Below the pieces are notes generated by a model that was given only the letters and a program-made list of their open reading frames with translations, had not been told where the DNA came from and searched no databases. A stretch of 64,000 nt of DNA. Origin: an uncultured cyanobacterium (GTDB lineage: Bacteria > Cyanobacteriota > Cyanobacteriia > PCC-6307 > Cyanobiaceae). The stretch spans positions 32,001 to 96,000 of the forward strand of contig CAVONQ010000016.1 of assembly GCA_963697335.1 (NCBI GenBank). Reading direction: 5' to 3'. This document shows, in pieces, positions 34,306 through 45,900 of this stretch (position 1 is the first letter of the stretch; each line of letters opens with the position of its first letter). The position numbers were made by a program, and so were the translations under genes.

Positions 34306-35807
<1,502 letters not shown>

Positions 35808-35808
<1 letters not shown>

Positions 35809-38426
35809 TGAGGCCCGCGGCCGCTGGTCGGGCCAAGGGTGGCGCCGGCGTGGATGCCCGGGCCATCCGCTGGCGGGTCCGGCGCTTCACCCTCGCCTGG
35901 TATCTCGTGGTGACGGGCCTTCTGCTCGGGGCGGCGGGCATCACCTTCTGGAGGTTGCAGCTGACCATCCAGGAGTTCGCCGGCCAGCGGGTGACCATGG
36001 TTCGGGAGAACCTGGGCAAACAGCTCAAGATCACCGACGAGACCTACCGAAAACTCGCCCTTGCGGCGATGCGGGTGTTGAAGGCTGATTTTCAGGTCCT
36101 GGGAGCGGCCCGGTTGGGATCGGGCAGCGTGCGCAGCGGTGACCAAACCGTGCCGGATCTGCGCTTTGGTGAGTCGCCGGTGGCCGACCAGGCCGCCCTC
36201 GTGGAGGAGGTGTCGGCCCAGCTGGGCGCGACCGCCACCGTGTTCGTGGCCCGCGGCGACCGGTTCATCCGGGTGGCTACCACGGTGAACGATCAGGAGG
36301 GCACCGCCGCCATAGGCACCGACCTGGAGCCGGGCGGTGAGGTCATTGAGGCCCTGCGGCAGGGCGGGGTGTTCATCGGCGTGGTGGACATTCTCGGAGC
36401 GCCCTACTTCTCGGCCTATGAACCGATCCGCGACGGCCAGGGTCGGGTGATCGGCGCCTTCTACGCGGGCTACCCCATGGCCTCCCTTTCGGAGATCGGC
36501 CGCTCGGTGCGCGATGCCAAGATCCTTGAAAATGGCTTCGTGGCCCTCACCGATTCCCAGGGGGGCCAGCTGTTTCGCTCCTCGGGCGCCACCGCCGACC
36601 TTGTTGAGAGGGTGCTGCGCGAGGTTCCGGCCCCGACGGAAGAATCAGCCATCGGCGGGCTCGACGGCTACCGGGTGACCCGCACCCGGTTCGCTCCCTG
36701 GGGCTTCGACATCGTGATCGCCCGGTTCAATCCGGACATCGATCAGCTGACCTTAAGGCTCACCGTCGGGGTGCTCTGGCTGATGGCCGTGGTGATCGCC
36801 ACCGTGCTGGTGCTCTCCTGGTGGTTCAGCCAGCGGCTCTCCCATGCGCTGATTGCCGGGGAAATCGCCAGGCGGCGGGCCGATCTGGAGCGCAGGTCGG
36901 CCCGGGCCGCCAAGCGGGTGGCTGACCAGGCCAGCCAAGCCAAGAGTGCCTTCCTGGCCAATATGAGCCACGAGCTACGTACGCCGATGAACGCGATCAT
37001 CGGCTACAGCGAGATGTTGATCGAGGAGGCCGAGGAGATCACCTCTGGCCAGATGGTGCTGGACCTTCGAAAAATCCAGGCTGCCGGCAAACATCTTCTG
37101 GCCTTGATCAATGGTGTGCTCGATCTCTCCAAGATTGAGGCCGGAAAGATGACCCTCTATCTGGAAGACTTTGATCTGGCTGAGGCAATCCATGAGGCGG
37201 CCACCACGGTGACCCCGCTTCTGAGGGAGCATCAGAATCATTTCGTGCTCGACTGCCCAGATGGGCTGGGCACGCTGCGATCCGATCGCACCAAGTTTCG
37301 CCAGTGTCTTCTCAATCTTCTCAGCAATGCCAGCAAGTTCACGGAACGGGGAGAAATCAGCCTGCGGGTGATCAACGATCTCGCTGATCACCGCATTCGG
37401 GTGGTGGTTCAGGACACCGGCATCGGCATGACTGCCGAGCAGATGGAGCACTTGTTCGAGAGTTTCAACCAGGCCGACAGCAGCACCACCCGCCGCTACG
37501 GCGGAACCGGTCTGGGCCTGGCGATCAGTCGTCAATTCAGTCGGATGATGGGTGGCGACATCACGGTGGCCAGTTGTCCCGGCCAGGGCAGTTGCTTCAC
37601 CCTGACCCTCCCCCGGTCGCTGGAACAGCCCGGGCCCGCTTTGGCAGAGCCGGGCCAGCCGGAGCCTGGTCCCGCTGATCTGCTGGCCCCCAGGGGTCGG
37701 GTGCTGGTGGTCGACGATGACCCCGCTGCCCTAGAACTCGTCAGCCGTTTCCTGGCTCGGGACGGCTACGCCGTCACCACCACGTCCAGCGGGGATGAGG
37801 CGATCGCCCTGGCCCGCCAGATCAAGCCCGATGCCATCACCCTGGACGTGATGATGCCGGGACTGGATGGCTGGAGCGTGCTGGCGGCTCTTAAGGCCGA
37901 TCCGGAGCTTGCCGCGGTTCCCGTGGTGATGATGAGCATGTTGGACAACCTCGAGCTCGGCTTTGCGGCGGGCGCGGCGGAATGCCTGACCAAGCCGGTG
38001 GACTGGAGCCGCTTCGAGCGGATCCTCGGCCGCCTGACTCCGGTCGATTCCCAGGCGCCAGCGCGGGCTCTGGTGGTGGAGGCTGACCCCGCCAGCGCCG
38101 ACTTGCTCCGCCGCATGCTGGAGAAGGGGGGTTGGGCTGTGGATCAGGCCAGAGATGGGCAGGAGGCACTGAAGGTGCTGGCCCGCTTCCGCCCGACGGT
38201 CATCCTGCTCGATCTGATGATGCCCCGCATGGACGGCCTGGACTTCGTCGAGCGGCTGCGGCGCAACCCCGCCGCAGCGAGCATCCCTGTGATCGTGATC
38301 ACAGCCCATACCCTGACGCCCGAGGACCAGGCCCGCCTCAATGGCCGGGTCAGCGATGTGATCAGCAAGGGATCCCTCAGCGCCGCCGCCCTTTCCGAGC
38401 AGATCAATGCGATTCTGGCCAGCTGA
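35808..38426 (+). CDS. membrane hybrid sensor histidine kinase (TM-Cache-TM-HisKA-HATPase-REC-REC)
   Basis: ATVFV..FIRVATT, YEPIRD..VIGAFY (Cache), FLANMSHELRTPMN, NLLSNASKFT, DTGIG, GGTGLGL, two receivers; ATG overlaps pds TGA. Confidence 0.93.
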
Positions 38427-38453
38427 TTCCCCCTTGGCCGCCCGTTGCCAACC

Positions 38454-38840
38454 ATGACCCGTGTGCTGCTGGTCGAAGACAACGACATGAACCGGGATAT
38501 GTTGTCCCGCCGCCTGACCCGCAGGGGCTTCACCGTGGTGATGGCGATCAACGGGGAAGCGGCCCTGGCCATGGTCGCTGCCGAGACCCCCGACCTGATC
38601 CTGATGGACATGAGTCTGCCCGTGATCGACGGGTGGGAAGCGACCCGCCGCCTCAAGGCGGATCCCGCCACCGCCACCATCCCCGTGATCGGCCTCACCG
38701 CCCACGCCATGGAGGGAGATCTGCAGGCTTGCCTGCAGTCGGGCTGTGATGATTACGACACCAAGCCTGTGGACCTGCCGCGCCTGCTCAACAAGATCCA
38801 GACCCAGCTGCAGCGGCTTCAGGCCGGGGCGGAGGCCTGA
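38454..38840 (+). CDS. single-domain response regulator (DivK-like)
   Basis: LLVEDN, ILMDMSLP..DG, LTAHAM, DTKP. Confidence 0.93.
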   Translation: MTRVLLVEDNDMNRDMLSRRLTRRGFTVVMAINGEAALAMVAAETPDLILMDMSLPVIDGWEATRRLKADPATATIPVIGLTAHAMEGDLQACLQSGCDDYDTKPVDLPRLLNKIQTQLQRLQAGAEA

Positions 38841-39886
38841 TGGGGCTTGGCCATCCACCTGCGGGCTCCGGCCCCCCCGATCCTGCGGGATCCGGAGACC
38901 AGTCAATGGCGGAGCTGCGCCATGACCTCATCAACCCGATCAACCAGATCCTCGGCTACAGCGAATTGCTCGAGGAGGATGCCCGCGACCGGTACCCCGA
39001 TGCCGTGGAGGACCTCGGCAAAATCCAGCAGGCAGCCGGCACCCTGCTGAGCCTGCTGCAGACGCGGCTCGTCGGGGCCCTCGAGAGTCCCGCTGGACCC
39101 AACCAGCTCCTTGTTAACCAACTGTTACCCAGCACGCCGCTGCCCGACCAGGAGTCCGGGGGGGCGGCCCCCCGGACGGGACAGATCCTGGTGGTGGATG
39201 ACGATGCAGCCAACCTCGAGCTTCTCGCCCTGCGGCTGCAGCGCCAGGGGCATGGCGTCACGTCCGCGTCCGATGGAGAGGAGGCTCTGGAGCGGCTCCG
39301 CCATCACGCCTTCGACCTGCTGCTGCTCGACGTGATGATGCCGCGCCTGGATGGCTACGGCACCCTGGAGCGCCTGAAGATCCATCCCCAGTGGAGGCAC
39401 CTGCCGGTGATCATGATCAGTGCTCTCGATGAGCTCTCCAGCGTCGTGCGCTGCATCGAGGCGGGGGCGGATGACTACCTGGCAAAGCCCTTCAATCCCA
39501 CGCTGTTGCGCGCCAGGATCGGCGCCTGCCTCGACAAGAAGGCCAGCCGGGATCAGGAAATCGCCCTTTACAACACTCTGGTGAGAAGCCAGCAACGGCT
39601 TCGGGCCGACGTCGATGCCGCTCGCAGCCAGGTCGAGTCTCTGGCTCCGGAGCTGCGCGAAGATGCCCGTGTCAGTCCCGTGCTGGCGGCGCTGGCCCGC
39701 ATGGCCGGCGCGGTCTCCCTACGGGAGAATGACTTACGGGTCACCCTTCAGGAACTGGAGATCAAGATCAACCGGCAGGCCCTCACCACGCAAGTCAGCT
39801 CCATCGTCAGCGACCCTGCCTTCTCGGCACTTTCCGAACGGGCCAGGGCGATGCGGAGCCGCCGCCGGCCTCAGGGAGGCGACTGA
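38840..39886 (+). CDS. DHp(HisKA)-receiver protein with uncharacterised coiled-coil C-terminal tail
   Basis: LRHDLINPINQILGYSELL H-box, no HATPase; LVVDD..LLDVMMP..ISA..AKP receiver; tail LEIKIN..QVSSIVSDPAF..RARAMR. Confidence 0.85.
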   Translation: MGLGHPPAGSGPPDPAGSGDQSMAELRHDLINPINQILGYSELLEEDARDRYPDAVEDLGKIQQAAGTLLSLLQTRLVGALESPAGPNQLLVNQLLPSTPLPDQESGGAAPRTGQILVVDDDAANLELLALRLQRQGHGVTSASDGEEALERLRHHAFDLLLLDVMMPRLDGYGTLERLKIHPQWRHLPVIMISALDELSSVVRCIEAGADDYLAKPFNPTLLRARIGACLDKKASRDQEIALYNTLVRSQQRLRADVDAARSQVESLAPELREDARVSPVLAALARMAGAVSLRENDLRVTLQELEIKINRQALTTQVSSIVSDPAFSALSERARAMRSRRRPQGGD

Positions 39887-40833
39887 TGGACGCCCTGCTC
39901 TGCCACCATGGCCCTCACCACGGTCACCCTGTCGTGCTGCCCAGCCTCGACCAGGCCTACGAGGACTGCCGCCAGGAGACCGCCCAGTGGGCCAAGACTT
40001 TCTATCTGGGAACCCTGCTGATGCCGACGGCCAAGCGCCGGGCGATCTGGGCGATTTATGTGTGGTGCCGCCGCACCGATGAACTGATGGACAGCGCCGA
40101 GGCCCAGGCGCGTCCCAAGGCGGAACTGGCGGCCCGGCTCGACCACTGGGAAGAGCACACCCGCGAGTTGTTCGAAGGGGTTGTGCTCGATGGCCTCGAT
40201 CTGGTCATGCGCGACACCCTGGAGCGCTACCCCCAGCCCCTCCAGGCCTATCTCGACATGATCGAGGGCCAGCGCATGGATCTGCGTCGGCAGCGCTACC
40301 CCAGCTTCGACGACCTGGAGCTCTACTGCTACCGGGTGGCCGGCACGGTGGGATTGATGACACAGGAAGTCATGGGCCGGGACGCGGCATACACCTCGGC
40401 CCCCTGGAGCGACGCCCCAGACACCACCGCAGCGGCGGTAGCCCTTGGCATTGCCAATCAGCTCACCAACATCCTGCGGGACGTGGGCGAAGACCGGGCC
40501 CGTGGCCGCATCTACCTTCCCCAGGAGGACCTGGCCCGTTTTGATTACGGCGAGGACCAACTTATGGCCGGGGTCTTCAATGACAACTGGCGGGCTCTGA
40601 TGCGCTTTCAGCTGGAGCGGGCCCGCCACTGGTTTGCCCGTGCCGAGGACGGCGTGCGTTGGCTGGCGCCTGATGCCCGCTGGCCGGTGTGGGCATCGTT
40701 GCGGTTGTACCGCGGCATCCTCGATGTGATCGAGCAGCAGAACTACGACGTGTTCAACAAGCGCGCCTTCGTGCCGAGCAGCGGCAAGCTGCTCGACCTG
40801 CCACTGTCATTCGTGGTCGCCCAGGTGCGCTGA
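39886..40833 (+). CDS. crtB: phytoene synthase
   Basis: AKTFYLGT, YVWCRRTDELMD, YCYRVAGTVG, QLTNILRDVGED..RGRIYLP. Confidence 0.97.
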   Translation: MDALLCHHGPHHGHPVVLPSLDQAYEDCRQETAQWAKTFYLGTLLMPTAKRRAIWAIYVWCRRTDELMDSAEAQARPKAELAARLDHWEEHTRELFEGVVLDGLDLVMRDTLERYPQPLQAYLDMIEGQRMDLRRQRYPSFDDLELYCYRVAGTVGLMTQEVMGRDAAYTSAPWSDAPDTTAAAVALGIANQLTNILRDVGEDRARGRIYLPQEDLARFDYGEDQLMAGVFNDNWRALMRFQLERARHWFARAEDGVRWLAPDARWPVWASLRLYRGILDVIEQQNYDVFNKRAFVPSSGKLLDLPLSFVVAQVR

Positions 40834-40835
40834 CG

Positions 40836-42398
40836 GTGCCGCGACTTCCCTGGCTACCGCCGTTGGCCACGGCGCTCCTGATCTGCTGCCTTCCCCCCCT
40901 ACCCCTACGCGCCGAGTGGGAACCCATCGTGCTCCCCAGCGATCTGGAGGTGGAGGCCCTGGGAAGTGGGTGGACCGGTGAACTGCCCCGCTCGGACCCG
41001 GCGCCGCTGCCGGCGGAGCAGCTCACGTCTCTGTCGATGGATCAGGCGGTTCGCTGGTCGAGCCAGCGCAATCCGGTGATCCGTTCGGCGTTTCAGAACC
41101 TGGTGGCCACCCAAAACAGCCTGGGAGCTCAGTACGCCCGCTGGTGGCCAGTGATCAATGTCTCGCTCACCGGGGGGCTCTACGGGCAGGATTCGGGTGT
41201 CAGCGGCACCAGCCTGAATGGGGGTGGCTTCGGCGGTGGCGGTGGCGGCGGCGGCGGCGGCGGCGGCAGTTTCGGCCCCGATGGGGGCTATTTCTCCTCG
41301 ATTGCCCAGGTGGACGCCACCTGGAATCTGATCGACCCCTCCCGGGCACCGGCCATTTGGAAGGCCAAATATCAGGTGCGCCAGGCCGCCGATGCCTACG
41401 TCATCGCCTACCGCGACAACCGTTTGCAGGTGGAGTCGGCGTTCATTGCCCTGCAGGCCGCGGCGGCTCAGGTGCAGGCCAGCAGGCTGATCGTGGATAA
41501 CGACGGCCTGCTCCTGCAACTCACGGAGGCCAAGCTCCGCCTTGGGGTAGCCTCGCGGCTCGATGTGACCAAGCAGAAAACGGTTCTGTTTGCCGACCAG
41601 GTTGACCTTGAGCAGGGTGTCAAGGCGGTCGCGATCGCCCGCAGTCAGCTGGCTGAGTTGCTCAACGTGGACCAGCCGGATCTGATCAACCCAGGCGCCG
41701 CCCTGGTTCCGCTGGGCGTGTGGCCCCACAGCCTTGATCAAACCGTGGAGGCCAGCCTTGCCTACCGCAAGGTGATCCAGCAGAAGCTGCTGGATGTGAA
41801 AGTCTTTGAAGCTGATGCCCAGATTGCCCTGGCTGTCTACCAGCCCACGCTTCAGCTGATCAATACTCTTTATTGGAACCGCAATGCCTATTGGACAGAG
41901 TCGCTGAGAAGCTATGTGTTCAATCCGTCCTCTGCGTTGACTCTCACCTTCACTGGCTTCGACGGGGGGCAGGCACGGATGGAGGCAGAGGCCTCCAGGC
42001 GGAAGTCGGCGGCCGCTGCCCAGGACTACCTGGCAGCCAGGAATTCTGCGCGACAGGAGGCGCAGGCCGATTTCGCCAAGGTGGACGTGGGCCGCAAGGT
42101 GCTGTTGGCTTCGGCCAATGAAGTGGAGCAGGCCAACAAGGCGATTCGGCTTCAGAGCCTTCGCTTCAATGCAGGCTATGGCACGATCACCGATGTGGTT
42201 CAGGCTCAGTTGAGCCTTGCTCAATCAGTTCTCTCGTTTGTCGAAAATCTTAAGGACTACAATCAGTCCCTGACCAGTCTGGCCAGAAACACCGGACTTA
42301 ATTATGTGACTGATTCAGTATTCAGCCGTGATGTGGGTCAGCCTTTGTCGGAATTAGAGCGCCTGCCCGAGCTATTCGATCGACGCACCGGCGGCTGA
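40836..42398 (+). CDS. TolC family outer membrane protein with poly-Gly tract
   Basis: Signal peptide, RNP, WWP..VSL, GVASRLDV, FDGG, RFNAGYGTITDVVQAQ repeats of OEP family; GTG start 40836. Confidence 0.85.
   Translation: MPRLPWLPPLATALLICCLPPLPLRAEWEPIVLPSDLEVEALGSGWTGELPRSDPAPLPAEQLTSLSMDQAVRWSSQRNPVIRSAFQNLVATQNSLGAQYARWWPVINVSLTGGLYGQDSGVSGTSLNGGGFGGGGGGGGGGGGSFGPDGGYFSSIAQVDATWNLIDPSRAPAIWKAKYQVRQAADAYVIAYRDNRLQVESAFIALQAAAAQVQASRLIVDNDGLLLQLTEAKLRLGVASRLDVTKQKTVLFADQVDLEQGVKAVAIARSQLAELLNVDQPDLINPGAALVPLGVWPHSLDQTVEASLAYRKVIQQKLLDVKVFEADAQIALAVYQPTLQLINTLYWNRNAYWTESLRSYVFNPSSALTLTFTGFDGGQARMEAEASRRKSAAAAQDYLAARNSARQEAQADFAKVDVGRKVLLASANEVEQANKAIRLQSLRFNAGYGTITDVVQAQLSLAQSVLSFVENLKDYNQSLTSLARNTGLNYVTDSVFSRDVGQPLSELERLPELFDRRTGG
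41232..41267 (+). repeat. trinucleotide GGY repeat encoding 12 Gly, including (GGC)8
   Basis: GGC GGT GGC GGT (GGC)8 directly visible. Confidence 0.9.
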
Positions 42399-42433
42399 TC
42401 TCTCTCTCAGCGTCTCGAGTCTCACGTTTCGTC

Positions 42434-43872
42434 CTAGGGAGGGTCAAGTGCGCGATTGCGCCGGGCCCGCATGGCCCGGGCCCGTTGGTTCAGCCGGGTG
42501 AAGTTGGGATCCTTGACAATGGAGCATATCTGGCCGTGGAGTTCCTCCTGGTTGATGTCGATTTCCAGGGTCTTGATCTTGGCGAGCAGGGAGTCTCCCC
42601 GGTCAGCTACGGCCAGGGCCATGGAGTTGAACGCCTGCACAAGCCGTCCTAGGGCATCATTGCCGGCGTAGCTGATGGCCTGGCGGCGTTGGCCGTTGCT
42701 GATCGCAGTTGCGGCTGCGGCAAGCTCACGTAGTTGCTGCCGAATGCCTTCAGAAATCCGCCACGCCGCCAGTCCGCAGAAGCCGATCAGACCTAGGGTC
42801 GCTACCGATAGCTGCACCAGGATCCTGAAGGTGTCTGACTGCAACGGCCTGAGCGATTTCAGTAGGGCCTTATTGTCGACGCTCATCACACTGATCCAGT
42901 CCCAGGCTGGGAAGACAGAGATGAACAGGGTGCGCTCTTCCCCCACCGTCCGGGAGTCGCCGGTAGCGGCGCTCCGGCGTTCCATCAGGTAGGGATCGCC
43001 GCTGCCGGAGACCCTGGGCAGCCCACCGGTGGCCTGGAGATCCTTGATCAGATCCTGGCAGGCGGCTTGTCCAGGTTGGGAGTAGAGGCAGATGGGCCTG
43101 TTCGAGGCCGAAAGGCCAAGGAAGGCCAGTTGATGGTCAGCCTGGGGAACAGGTTTGTGGCCGTCTCCAGCAGACTGGAGGCTGCATCGGTTCGCACACT
43201 CACCGAGAGCACCAGTCGTGCGGGGACCGGGTCGGGGCCCAGGGCCGTCAGCTCGCTGAGGCGCCATCCGTGATCCTCCCTCACCAGAGTGCTCTGGGTG
43301 AGCAGTGTTCCGCTGGGGGTGAGATCCAGGGATTCCAACTGTTTTGCCGTTGTGTCTGGTACCCGCCAGAGCGTGGGGAGTGTTGTGTTCTTATCTGTGA
43401 CGCCCGCCAGGCGAAGCCAGCTTTTCCCCTCACGGGTGTAGTAAACAGAGGCGCTCTTGTTGGGCGTGGCCAGGCCCAGCCTCAGGGCGTTGATGACGAC
43501 CTGCTCGGCGGCCTCCCTGGAGAGCGGTTGCCCTTTCCAGCGGAACCCGCCGTCAGGATCCATACCGAGATCCTGCAGGCTTGCCGCCAGACGCTTGCTG
43601 TCATCGGACAGATAGTCTGCGGTCTGATCGGCGCTGCTTTGAATCAATCGGGTGGCGGTCCTTACCCGGGTCAGGTTGTCCTGGTCAATCAGCTTGGTGA
43701 TGTCGTGCCCAGCCTCTCTGGAAAGCCGTAGAGCTGTCATGGAGGAAATCAGAAAGAAGATGGCCATGCTCACCAGCGGACCGCTGACACCCAGAACGAT
43801 CAGCCGCGTTGAGAGCCCCATGGCTGGGCGCCGCGCTGGTGTTTCATCCTTGGGCGCTCCTTGACGGCTCAT
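42434..43872 (-). pseudogene. membrane receptor (TM-Cache-like-TM-HAMP-tail) split by one frameshift; pseudogene or sequencing error
   Basis: ORF 43048..43872 has TM1; ORF 42434..43267 has FPAWDW, TM2, HAMP (LRELAAAATAI..DALGRLVQAFNSM); one extra base in G4 run 43144-43147 joins them into 479 aa. Confidence 0.75.
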
Positions 43873-43946
43873 GGTCAGCTCTCAGAGGAGGGGTTTGAAT
43901 GTAGGATGAATGTCCATGGGCGGTTCAGCCAGGGAGGGACTAAACG

Positions 43947-44717
43947 ATGGTGATGCCTAAAATCATCTCAGTCCACTCTTTCCGTGGTGGTACTGGAAAG
44001 TCTAATCTGACTGCAAATCTTGCCTTCGCTTTCGCGATGCAGGGCAAGAAAGTTGCCGTCTTTGATACCGATCTTGCCTCGCCAGGGATCCACGTTCTGT
44101 TTGGATTCTCGGTTCAGCCTGGCCAGACCACACTGAATGACCATCTGCAGGGATCGGCTCCGATCAAGGACTGTGCCTACAATGTAACGCCAGAACAGGC
44201 TAAGTCCTCCCGCGGCCGGATCTGGTTGGTGCCAGCGTCCATGGAGAGCGACCGCATTGCCCGATTGCTGCGGGAGGGATATCAGGTTGAGCGCCTGAAT
44301 GACGCCCTCTTTGCTCTCGCAGAAACCCTTGGGCTCGATCTCGTGCTGATCGATACCCACCCCGGGATCAACGAGGAAACCCTCCTTTCTGCGGCCATCT
44401 CCGATGTCCTTGTCATCGTGATGCGTCCCGATTCCCAGGACTATCTCGGTACGGCGGTGGCGATTGAAGTGGCGGAAAGGCTGGAGGTGCCCGCCATTCG
44501 TATGGTGGTCAACAAGGTGCCCAGTCATTTCGACCCAGATCAGGTGCGCGAACGGGTGGCCCGCAGTTACGGCGTTCCTATCGGGGCCTCCCTCCCCCTC
44601 AGCGAAGACCTGCTCACCATTGCCAGCGGCAGCCTGGCCCTGGTGGACGTTCCTGGCCACCCGTGGAGCGCCGGCGTGACCCAGCTCGCCACCGACCTGG
44701 CCGATGTGCTGCGCTGA
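43947..44717 (+). CDS. MinD/ParA family ATPase
   Basis: HSFRGGTGKSN deviant Walker A, FDTDL..PG, LIDTHPG, VVNK; GGAGG-like RBS upstream; start 43947 or 43953. Confidence 0.9.
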   Translation: MVMPKIISVHSFRGGTGKSNLTANLAFAFAMQGKKVAVFDTDLASPGIHVLFGFSVQPGQTTLNDHLQGSAPIKDCAYNVTPEQAKSSRGRIWLVPASMESDRIARLLREGYQVERLNDALFALAETLGLDLVLIDTHPGINEETLLSAAISDVLVIVMRPDSQDYLGTAVAIEVAERLEVPAIRMVVNKVPSHFDPDQVRERVARSYGVPIGASLPLSEDLLTIASGSLALVDVPGHPWSAGVTQLATDLADVLR

Positions 44718-45900
44718 TGCTCCAGGCCCCCCAGGGGATCCGGGGGGCAGGCCCGCCCAGGTCGCGTTGCCGGAGGGGCCCCTCTCCATGAGCCTGCTGC
44801 TGGCGGTGGAGCCTGTGACACTCCGACGGCTGCTCCGCCTCGGACTGCGGACCGGTCTGGAGGAAGGGGAGTTTGATCAGCTCTGCAGCGCCAGCGCCGA
44901 CGCCATGGGCATGGCCCCGGCAGCCCTGCGTGAGGGCTTCAGGCACGGGGGTGGCTCGGCTGGGACCCCGGCCGCGACCGCTGGCGGACGCGTCTAGGCG
45001 CCCCCTTCGCCCCGCCGCCTCAGGATTGTCCGGCCGCTGAGCGCGGTCCTGCAGCAGTGGGTTCACCTGCTCCGGTGCCTCATCGTGGGGGCAATGGCCC
45101 AGCCCCGGCAGTTCATGCAGGCGGCGCACGCAGGCGAAGCGCTGCCAGCGGCGGGCTTCGGCCACGGGTTCCCAGGGATCTGCCTGGCCGCAGATCAGGG
45201 TCACGGGCGTGGCCAGCTCGCCGAGCAGGTCCGGGGCCAGGTAGTCATCGAAGAGATTCACGAAGCCGCGGAAGGCCTCGCTGGCGCCGGGCTGCTGGGC
45301 GGGGGTGAGCAGCAATTCCACCAGCTGCTCATCCACGTTGCGGCCGCTGGGATAGGCCTGGAGCAGCACCCGGCGGATCGCCTGCGGGCGGGCGAAGGAG
45401 CGGAACAGCAACTGGGTCAGCCAGCGTTGGCGCACCACGCTCTTGAGCGCTGGGCGCAGGCGGCGCAGCCCTGCGGGCTGGTCAACCAGGCGCTTGTCAT
45501 CGAGGGCTCGCTGGGCGCAGTCCACAAGCACCACGCCGAGGGCGGGATGGCCGCTGCGCTCCAGCTTGGCAGCGGCCGCCAAGGCCACGACGCCGCCGAT
45601 GGAGTTCCCCACCAGCTGCACCGTCTCCAGCTGCTGGGAGGCGATGAACGCCACCACCTGATCGGCCCAGAGCTCCATGCCGTAGTGCAGGCAGCCCGGC
45701 AGGTCGGGTTCGTCCCGCAGGCGGGAGCGGGGCTTGTCGCTGGCCCCGAAACCGATCAGGTCAAGGGCATAGACGGGCCGCTGCTGCCGAAGCGCCTCCA
45801 CGGTGTGGCGCCAGTGTTCCTTGCAGGCCCCGAAGCCGTGGATCATCAGCACGGGAGCCCCGGGGGTGGCGGTCAGGGCCGGTGCGGCCAGATACGCCAT
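44614..45900 (-). CDS. alpha/beta fold hydrolase (homologous part ~45050-45920; 3' read-through suspicious)
   Basis: IHGFGA, LDLIGFGAS, GNSIGG nucleophile elbow, GQADPWE, GHCPHDEAPEQVN; ORF runs ~145 codons past the expected end. Confidence 0.8.
   Translation of the reverse strand: MAYLAAPALTATPGAPVLMIHGFGACKEHWRHTVEALRQQRPVYALDLIGFGASDKPRSRLRDEPDLPGCLHYGMELWADQVVAFIASQQLETVQLVGNSIGGVVALAAAAKLERSGHPALGVVLVDCAQRALDDKRLVDQPAGLRRLRPALKSVVRQRWLTQLLFRSFARPQAIRRVLLQAYPSGRNVDEQLVELLLTPAQQPGASEAFRGFVNLFDDYLAPDLLGELATPVTLICGQADPWEPVAEARRWQRFACVRRLHELPGLGHCPHDEAPEQVNPLLQDRAQRPDNPEAAGRRGRLDASASGRGRGPSRATPVPEALTQGCRGHAHGVGAGAAELIKLPFLQTGPQSEAEQPSECHRLHRQQQAHGEGPLRQRDLGGPAPRIPWGAWSISAAHRPGRWRAGSRRRSTGGQERPPGPGCRWQW
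44704..44997 (+). CDS. small hypothetical partner of the MinD-like ATPase (frame possibly disrupted)
   Basis: Helical core LSMSLLLAVEPVTLRRLLRLGLR directly after ATPase; ends uncertain. Confidence 0.5.
   Translation: MCCADAPGPPGDPGGRPAQVALPEGPLSMSLLLAVEPVTLRRLLRLGLRTGLEEGEFDQLCSASADAMGMAPAALREGFRHGGGSAGTPAATAGGRV

Follow-up and report, generated by a model that had tools for sequence, protein, structure and literature searches.

A conserved C-terminal tail of sensors without an output domain is genomically linked to a MinD/ParA-type ATPase in a cyanobacterial carotenoid locus and across phyla

Introduction

Where does a signal go when the proteins that receive it carry no recognizable output domain? 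The question is raised by a locus within a 64,000-nucleotide stretch of DNA from an uncultured cyanobacterium (contig CAVONQ010000016.1, positions 32,001 to 96,000; hereafter "the window"), in which a hybrid histidine kinase, two further phosphorelay proteins and a membrane receptor lie beside a divergent ATPase of the MinD/ParA type and a small open reading frame (ORF). An earlier note on this DNA had proposed that a tail shared by the ends of two of these proteins is their output, that it couples periplasmic sensing and the state of the phosphorelay to the ATPase, and that the pathway might serve the spatial control of secretion through a TolC-like protein. Here, we report that tail, ATPase and a small winged helix-turn-helix (wHTH) protein are linked by gene neighbourhood, co-occurrence and gene fusion, and that the locus belongs to a signalling module that is widespread and more general than the earlier note could see. 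We consider a functional coupling of tail to ATPase very probable, and a direct binding of the one to the other, as structure prediction weakly suggests, fairly likely.

All genes that the earlier note named are present by Pfam within the interval it gave, with corrections to four details; crtB, which lies between the genes for the tail-bearing phosphorelay protein and the TolC-like protein, had been left unlisted. The parts of the module are as follows (positions of the window; TM, transmembrane segment; HMM, hidden Markov model).

35808..38426, plus strand: hybrid histidine kinase with TM, Cache_3-Cache_2, HisKA, HATPase_c, REC and REC (Pfam)
38445..38840, plus strand: single-domain receiver, REC (PF00072, 94.3 bits)
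38840..39886, plus strand: HisKA(DHp)-REC-tail protein without HATPase_c (REC 105.3 bits, HisKA 26.2 bits)
39722..39865, plus strand: tail copy 1, residues 295-342 of the HisKA-REC protein (core tail HMM, E 5e-17)
42434..43872, minus strand: membrane receptor with TM, outer domain without family match, TM, HAMP and tail, read in two frames owing to a 1-base gap in the G-run 43144-43147
42458..42601, minus strand: tail copy 2, residues 223-270 of the receptor's C-terminal ORF (core tail HMM, E 2e-17)
43947..44717, plus strand: MinD/ParA-type ATPase of the HS[FY]RGGTGKSN / DTHPG subfamily (CbiA, ParA, AAA_31)
44704..45010 (ORF as read, 44704-44997), plus strand: small partner gene, winged-helix by hhalign, 3' end approximate, frameshifted near 44933

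Results

Two otherwise unrelated sensors end in the same tail

As the earlier note had noticed, the C-termini of the HisKA-REC protein and the receptor align, with 25 identities in 57 positions (44%, E 6e-8), and they do so in two proteins that are otherwise unrelated; the 2.58-Mb genome holds no copies but these two. Residues L306, I308, I310, N311, I322, D325, P326, F328, L331 and R334-R339, among others, are invariant in 14 HisKA-REC orthologues plus the receptor. The wider consensus of this presumably helical tail of about 50 residues reads RE..L..Q...L.IEID..KR..QV.EI..TDYFQ.L...A..LR.R, the window variant LEIKINR....QV.SIV.DP.F..L.ERARAMR.RR, and in this pattern a polar, basic link connects two stretches whose hydrophobic residues are spaced in a heptad-like manner.

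The tail is abundant and terminal. Out of 1.84 billion cluster representatives, a profile built from ten tails matches 2426 at E ≤ 1e-3, of which 1497 remain at E ≤ 1e-10, and in 138 of the best 150 matches the tail ends at most 25 residues from the C-terminus (median 7). Its carriers, as classified by Pfam, comprise HisKA-REC proteins (also with HAMP), dCache-HAMP, HAMP alone, PAS-PAS, GAF, HAMP proteins with a cyclic nucleotide (cNMP)-binding domain, and CHASE2 sensors, to which one source adds WD40/HAMP proteins; source annotations call them just "HAMP domain-containing protein", "response regulator" and similar. No Pfam family spans the tail, which matches coiled-coil families only, and weakly, and no solved structure in the PDB matches it beyond the HAMP part. 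In the CHASE2 sensors of four loci (L038, L055, L056, L059; we number loci with L and genomes with G) the tail is internal and is followed by 90-160 residues without a Pfam match, so that a second C-terminal module may exist in these proteins.

One candidate relative of the tail was set aside. HalX (PF08663) is likewise a short helical C-terminal module following REC, in archaeal response regulators, with no function assigned, and its matches to the tail stay below threshold (14-15 bits versus 23.2, E about 0.03-0.06), among scattered coiled-coil families. Just 8 of 35 tails match it, weakly (best E 0.027), with about 26 residues of the last helix aligning; on these comparisons a relationship between the two is not established.

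The sensors form a phosphorelay and a receptor without an output domain

The window holds the parts of a two-component phosphorelay, namely HisKA and HATPase_c in the kinase, receivers, and a DHp protein bearing the histidine. The kinase starts at a methionine at 35808, which is residue 64 of the ORF 35619-38426, and orthologous kinases precede the HisKA-REC-tail genes of loci L019, L025-L027, L093, L096 and L097. Orthologues of the lone receiver, 65-78% identical, occupy the same position in L019, L093, L096 and L097. The HisKA domain of the HisKA-REC-tail protein is borderline (26.2 bits versus a cut-off of 26.9); in an alignment of 15 sequences of its family, H28, D164 and K216 are invariant or nearly so.

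Searches with Pfam and NCBIfam found no DNA-binding, cyclase, phosphatase or MCP-signal (methyl-accepting chemotaxis protein) domain in the signalling proteins, in agreement with the earlier note. The receptor is not a methyl-accepting chemotaxis protein, for HAMP alone was matched (26 bits), in the orthologues likewise, and MCPsignal was not. It had been described as a TM-Cache-HAMP receptor, of which the HAMP part stands and the Cache part falls: for the outer domain of roughly 300 amino acids, neither the window's copy nor those of four orthologues match Cache or any other Pfam family at E ≤ 1.

Tail and ATPase are linked across genomes

To follow up the earlier note's proposal of building an HMM from the tail and measuring its genomic linkage to the ATPase, we used a sample of 201 cyanobacterial genomes in which the ATPase was counted at E ≤ 1e-40. 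The tail profile matches 121 of these genomes, and the ATPase is present in 85 of them with 133 genes; a tail match accompanies the ATPase in 84 of the 85 genomes (the exception being G082), compared to 37 of the 116 genomes that have no ATPase. With 150 of the 315 tail matches listed, a listed tail lies no more than 10 kb from at least 57 of the 133 ATPase genes, no more than 3 kb from at least 40 and no more than 1 kb from at least 17, in 39 genomes. As a control, canonical MinD genes of tail-bearing genomes were compared in the same way, and none of the 61 listed lies within 50 kb of a listed tail. A core HMM freed of HAMP detects a tail ORF in 39 of 79 cyanobacterial ATPase loci and in 45 of 79 ATPase loci of a cross-phylum sample, which is mostly Chloroflexota. 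Furthermore, tail-linked ATPases appear in all major branches of a midpoint-rooted FastTree phylogeny of the ATPase domains of 79 loci, read for topology only.

Three loci carry HisKA, REC, tail and ATPase in a single ORF (L025:2534-4771, L026:2231-4393 and L027:2291-4390), each directly following a hybrid kinase 47% identical to that of the window. The tail in these fusions is degenerate and went undetected in L027, as would be expected if a covalent link had replaced docking. The claim that the tail is the output to the ATPase is strongly supported by linkage, co-occurrence, fusions and the MinD control; direct binding has weak support from a structure prediction, described next.

As the earlier note had suggested, we predicted the structure of a complex of two ATPase chains, two ATP molecules and one tail, together with three controls. 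The complex scored 0.58 versus 0.00 for the best control, with runs agreeing in at least 80% of contacts and a partner pLDDT (predicted local distance difference test) of at least 64, which leans slightly towards binding. In calibration, 116 of 157 solved complexes attained the mark, as did 2 of 215 mismatched pairs; scores of 0.60 or less account for just 18 of the 157 solved complexes plus both passing mismatches, counts that hold roughly for the present case, in which own alignments were used and ATP was included.

The ATPase is a divergent member of the ParA/MinD superfamily

Three Pfam families match the ATPase above their cut-offs (CbiA 59.0 versus 25.4 bits, ParA 58.0 versus 27.1, AAA_31 49.6 versus 27), and residues G15, T16, G17, K18, D40, D42 and D136 are invariant in 20 family sequences. 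These 20 members share the motifs HS[FY]RGGTGKSN, DTD, DTHPG (Walker B) and RPD.QD; arginine takes the place of the signature lysine (SFRGGTGKS) in the window's ATPase as well as in 90% or more of them, with GKS intact. The scores for named MinD families all lie below cut-off: bacterial MinD TIGR01968 gives 41.3 bits versus 212.9, archaeal MinD TIGR01969, though the best NCBIfam match, 87.9 versus 201.75, and the KGGVGR variant NF047398, whose motif is RGGTGKS here, 80.5 versus 90. As judged from these profiles and motifs, the protein belongs to the ParA/MinD (A/D) P-loop superfamily and is not MinD. A separate canonical MinD is encoded in the window genome (E 7e-105) and in all 201 cyanobacterial genomes sampled, and no min genes (minC or minE) are found among the neighbours of the window ATPase. 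Among solved structures, archaeal MinD 1hyq is nearest (E 2e-24), followed by Aquifex MinD and FleN (5j1j, E 8e-13), and the alignment of the 20 members ends at the core fold, without an added C-terminal segment.

The KGGVGR MinD/ParA effectors of vWA-MoxR conflict systems were considered as relatives and rejected: as PMC7159879 describes them, they form a different, predicted-inactive group, and the ATPase here keeps GKS, DTD and DTHPG.

The family is patchy in the genus of the window (2 of 24 other genomes) and present in 10 of 16 other cyanobacterial families, often in several copies. A pattern scan of species-representative genomes returned at least 616 stretches that match the ATPase, the best 80 of which come mostly from Chloroflexota (Anaerolineae, Herpetosiphon, Longilinea), with a few contigs of metagenome-assembled genomes labelled as other phyla. 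Two family ATPases traced to their source records carry the name "MinD/ParA family protein". One ATPase (47% identity) sits on a contig binned as Methanosarcinales (L151) and another on a Leptolyngbya plasmid (L146), which may reflect horizontal spread or mis-binning. A further record, L094 (CALRQM020000112.1), is titled "MAG: Bordetella parapertussis isolate ..." and holds the picocyanobacterial TolC, receptor, ATPase (75% identical), wHTH and hydrolase genes; its bin label looks wrong.

A small winged-helix gene accompanies the ATPase in many loci

Clustering the neighbours of the 79 cyanobacterial ATPase loci yielded a protein of about 105 amino acids in 18 of them, at a median gap of 28 bp from the ATPase gene. 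Members of this family match MarR_2 (28.9 versus 27 bits) and FeoC (30.5 versus 21), while matches to ArsR/Lrs14/Sta1-like NCBIfam models, including ArsR/SmtB, stay below cut-off. Counted by HMM, 28 of 79 cyanobacterial loci and 41 of 79 cross-phylum loci have the wHTH no more than 2 kb from the ATPase. In three cyanobacterial and three cross-phylum loci ATPase and wHTH form a single ORF with the wHTH at the C-terminus of the ATPase, and in some Chloroflexota the wHTH is the N-terminus of longer cNMP-binding proteins.

Intact orthologues of the window's small ORF, 81-113 amino acids long, directly follow the ATPase in ten related loci (L015, L028, L029 and L093-L098 included). The family of the small ORF matches the wHTH family by one route, hhalign (probability 93%, E 3e-7, 74 columns), and on the strength of this profile alignment the small ORF is a divergent winged-helix protein. 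The small partner ORF of the earlier note is accordingly real and adjacent to the ATPase; its winged-helix identity had been missed, as had the break in its frame. A winged-helix partner suggests a transcriptional output instead of a control of secretion, and we give an output of this kind close to an even chance, perhaps slightly below it.

The inputs are modular and the neighbours variable

The remaining features of the locus place the module among carotenoid genes.

34369..35808, plus strand: crtP, phytoene desaturase, context (Pfam Amino_oxidase, 308.9 bits), with a 1-nt overlap between its stop and the start of the kinase gene
39886..40833, plus strand: crtB, phytoene synthase (PF00494, 247.6 bits)
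40836..42398, plus strand: OEP/TolC-family outer-membrane factor with a glycine-rich insert, start approximate (PF02321, 127.7 bits)
44614..45900, minus strand: alpha/beta hydrolase, a recurrent neighbour (Pfam; homology to about residue 293)

The genes crtP, hybrid kinase, REC, HisKA-REC-tail, crtB and the OEP/TolC-family gene form a tight chain on the plus strand, after which follow the receptor on the minus strand, the ATPase and small ORF on the plus strand, and the converging alpha/beta hydrolase gene. The flanks of the locus consist of housekeeping genes, and ndhM is also among the window genes, beside crtP and crtB; by this gene content and by its relatives, the genome is that of a picocyanobacterium of the Cyanobium/Synechococcus type. 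The three-gene phosphorelay is wedged between crtP and crtB, as it is in L093, L096 and L097, whereas crtP and crtB abut without an insertion in G019, G182, G191 and L095. Because stop and start overlap by one base at three junctions (crtP/kinase, REC/HisKA-REC and HisKA-REC/crtB), the carotenoid genes and the inserted signalling genes are probably co-transcribed. The genome (2.58 Mb in 18 contigs) has a G+C fraction of about 0.65-0.73; at 42001-44000 the fraction is 0.603 versus 0.65-0.73 on the flanks, which fits the receptor-ATPase part being an accessory island.

The full row of kinase, REC, HisKA-REC-tail, crtB, TolC, receptor, ATPase and wHTH recurs in L093 and L096. Synechococcus WH7803 (L097) has the kinase arm and no receptor, while G019, G182, G191 and L095 have the receptor arm without the kinase module; in the distant cyanobacterium G035 (L019), a dCache-tail receptor, kinase, receivers, HisKA-REC-tail, ATPase and hydrolase stand in one row. 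The halves of the locus thus do occur independently, which the earlier note had named as a finding that would speak against a single pathway; formally it does, and each half keeps the ATPase and the small ORF. Since each separate half comes with ATPase and small ORF, we read the halves as modular inputs, not as unrelated genes.

Neighbours in the 79 cyanobacterial ATPase loci include a glutaminase (12 loci), an alpha/beta hydrolase (13) and cNMP-binding proteins in two clusters (11 and 8). Two branches of the ATPase tree that are distant from each other have the hydrolase family beside the ATPase, one ATPase clade has a glutaminase gene 6-208 bp downstream, and another set of loci holds DUF7005, a 370-amino-acid cNMP-binding protein, HlyD and an ABC transporter; loci of the glutaminase and DUF7005 types are L023, L024, L034, L064, L070, L077, L078, L081, L083, L087 and L089.

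The TolC-like gene bears most directly on the secretion proposal. Its product matches PF02321 (127.7 bits) in two stretches, with 75.3 bits versus a cut-off of 225 for the TolC subfamily TIGR01844; the first OEP repeat holds a run of about 13 glycines (GGGFGGGGGGGGGGGGSFG, window about 41200-41290). Each of the 8 complete picocyanobacterial loci with the ATPase has an orthologue, 40-64% identical, adjoining the module, and L094, which breaks off at a contig end, retains the C-terminal 370 residues (50% identity). Five complete genomes of the same family that lack the ATPase yielded no TolC-like orthologue (5 of 5), their best OEP proteins being 27-33% identical and encoded 49-526 kb from crtB. 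Within picocyanobacteria the TolC-like gene has therefore been gained and lost together with the module, and this co-inheritance (8 of 8 complete loci versus 0 of 5 relatives) lends some support to the link to TolC that had been proposed.

One way to read this association is that the tail-switched ATPase acts directly, without transcription, on the assembly, placement or activity of TolC-dependent export machinery, a reading to which the exporter-type genes of the 79 cyanobacterial loci (ABC transporters in 14, HlyD in 8, OEP in 6, and OEP or HlyD in 12) would also conform. However, the co-inheritance is explained equally well if the TolC-like gene is a regulated target, and the ATPase alignment shows no C-terminal extension that could serve as a membrane helix. 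In the cross-phylum sample outside the picocyanobacterial loci, moreover, OEP is found in none and HlyD only in L146 (a cyanobacterial plasmid), so that export is not the general output. We therefore regard direct control of export as improbable. The variability of the "payload" genes beside the module fits our preferred reading, in which the ATPase acts through a regulator that adjoins its targets.

Two genes of the module are broken in this assembly

The receptor is split here into overlapping frames (43872-43048 and 43267-42434), while its orthologues are single ORFs of 456-579 amino acids, and the small ORF falls out of register near 44933, its conserved C-terminal part (W..D....W.TRLG) sitting in another frame. 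We aligned contigs of four public sequencing runs (X1, X2, X7 and X11) to 42400-45100. One extra G stands behind 43143 (run 43144-47) in X1, X2 and X7, with X11 lacking coverage there; behind 44933 there is an extra G in X2, and behind 44934 an extra C in X1 and X7. The pieces from X2 otherwise differ from the window by 0-1 letters over 157-204 bases (depth 3.5-3.6), and X1 (depth 13.4) and X7 (10.7-22.4) agree with X2; the public runs contain at most 0.49 of the sampled words of the window. Near-identical public contigs carrying the extra base indicate that receptor and small ORF are both intact in close relatives, and the breaks in the window probably stem from errors of assembly in G/C runs, or else are very recent.

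Two further indels, at 43931 and 45001(-45002), are also bases absent from the window, at or near homopolymers. Four sites with bases absent near homopolymers suggest a deletion-biased assembly error, by which other split genes of the assembly may also be artefacts. The hydrolase ORF continues for about 135 codons after its homology has ended and so overlaps the genes for ATPase and wHTH, which lie on the opposite strand; its orthologues are 300-330 amino acids long, and these last 135 or so codons are probably an artefact of the same kind.

Discussion

We propose a module of three parts, in which sensors that lack an output domain and carry the tail act on a dedicated ATPase switch, and the ATPase in turn acts on the winged-helix partner, an export gene or both, and we give this arrangement an even chance. 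In the window, the Cache hybrid kinase would pass its signal through the lone receiver to the HisKA-REC-tail protein as one input to the single ATPase, and the receptor with TM, HAMP and tail would be a second input converging on it. As HAMP and DHp domains are dimeric, such sensors would present two tails to the two-fold symmetric ATPase dimer. A rearrangement of HAMP, or phosphorylation of REC at D164 after His-Asp-His-Asp transfer, would alter the presentation of the tail and thereby shift the ATP-dependent dimer cycle of the ATPase. The ATPase may then control the winged-helix partner, as FleN does FleQ, and this partner would most likely regulate the island's own genes, here including the TolC-like gene. 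More tentatively, and with the balance tipping somewhat against it, the same scheme could define a general prokaryotic class of signalling systems, in which sensors of any input feed through a common tail into a MinD/ParA-type ATPase and on to a wHTH protein or envelope machinery, a class that would be ancient, shared by Cyanobacteria and Chloroflexota and sporadic elsewhere.

Several observations weigh against this proposal. The two halves of the locus occur apart in relatives, and both receptor and wHTH frames are broken in this assembly. Neither tail nor wHTH lies near the ATPase in 24 of 79 cyanobacterial and 22 of 79 cross-phylum loci; of the 150 listed tails, 86 have no ATPase within 10 kb; 37 of 116 genomes without the ATPase give tail matches, many at weak E-values; and four genomes (G033, G051, G102 and G163) have listed tails with best E-values of 3e-22 to 2e-15 and no ATPase at E ≤ 1e-40. 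Counts of this kind overstate the number of independent events, because related genomes are not independent. The wHTH is not the only output, as it is absent from 27 of the 39 tail-linked cyanobacterial loci, and no operator or target for it emerged from the regions upstream of the ATPase in 8 picocyanobacterial loci, which are too diverged and whose cut-outs are out of register. Finally, by its calibration a pass at 0.58 in the complex prediction is [quoted passage not shown].

Positioning of cargo has to be considered in the same light. MinE, ParB, McdB and TlpT peptides switch A/D ATPases, and ParC/ParP and PpfA/TlpT are examples of the positioning of chemoreceptor arrays by ParA-like ATPases. 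The ATPase here could be such a motor, with the tail-bearing sensors as its cargo, the tail as an ATPase-stimulating peptide and no signal passing through the ATPase. Most A/D ATPases have positioning as their established role, the basic helix at the end of the tail resembles known stimulating peptides, and the linkage of tail to ATPase fits this account equally well. As mere cargo, however, tail proteins that have no other output would sense and signal to nothing, soluble single sensors (PAS, GAF, cNMP) would hardly have to be partitioned, and the REC-tail-ATPase and ATPase-wHTH fusions fit a relay better; we hold positioning to be about as improbable as direct control of export. That the tail is instead a coiled-coil end for dimerization or stabilization, with the ATPase co-located by shared regulation or island history, is very unlikely, since its heptad-like hydrophobic spacing, its weak matches to coiled-coil families only and the many tails far from any ATPase are set against the phyletic pattern (84 of 85 versus 37 of 116, with canonical MinD at 0 of 61), the single-ORF fusions, a linkage that holds across Cyanobacteria and Chloroflexota despite different sensors and flanking genes, and non-heptad residues (D.F..L, R.R.) strictly conserved across unrelated sensor classes.

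A relay from tail to ATPase would resemble several known systems in part. With MinD-MinE, ParA-ParB, McdA-McdB and PpfA-TlpT it shares a deviant-Walker-A ATPase of the MinD/ParA fold and a linked partner with a short conserved basic helical segment. It differs from these in that the segment sits at the C-terminus of sensors and not on a dedicated adaptor, that several sensors can share one ATPase, that arginine replaces the signature lysine, and that MinC and MinE do not adjoin while a separate canonical MinD is kept. FleN controls the transcription factor FleQ, and the FleN (FlhG)-FleQ/FlrA systems likewise pair a MinD-type ATPase with a protein of the DNA-binding type; the partner here is, however, a winged-helix protein of about 100 amino acids where those systems have a sigma-54 enhancer-binding protein, the setting is not flagellar, and the signal enters through tail-bearing sensors, for which FleN has no counterpart. 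In conservons and MglA-type modules, a P-loop NTPase switch is combined with a sensor-kinase-like protein and a small accessory protein in a conserved signalling cassette, and their logic is similar, but their NTPase is a Ras-like GTPase and not a MinD/ParA ATPase, and no Roadblock/LC7 protein occurs here. No shared tail is known from these modules.

The earlier note knew of no characterized pathway with this layout, and our keyword and motif searches of the literature, the scope of which excluded subscription journals and supplements, likewise gave no published description of the tail, the ATPase subfamily or the triad. None appears in the passages considered from PMC7159879, PMC8717448 and PMC7393227.

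If the proposal is true, thousands of sensors now labelled "HAMP domain-containing protein" or "response regulator" without a known output would gain one. A nucleotide-switch relay would join one-component, two-component, chemotaxis, second-messenger and partner-switching systems, and the role of ParA/MinD ATPases would widen from positioning to signal relay. Since cultured carriers exist, Synechococcus WH7803 (L097) among them, the hypothesis is directly testable. In picocyanobacteria, phototrophs of ecological importance, the module sits in a carotenoid operon and is inherited along with a TolC-like gene; here it may tie the sensing of the environment to export across the envelope or to photoprotection.

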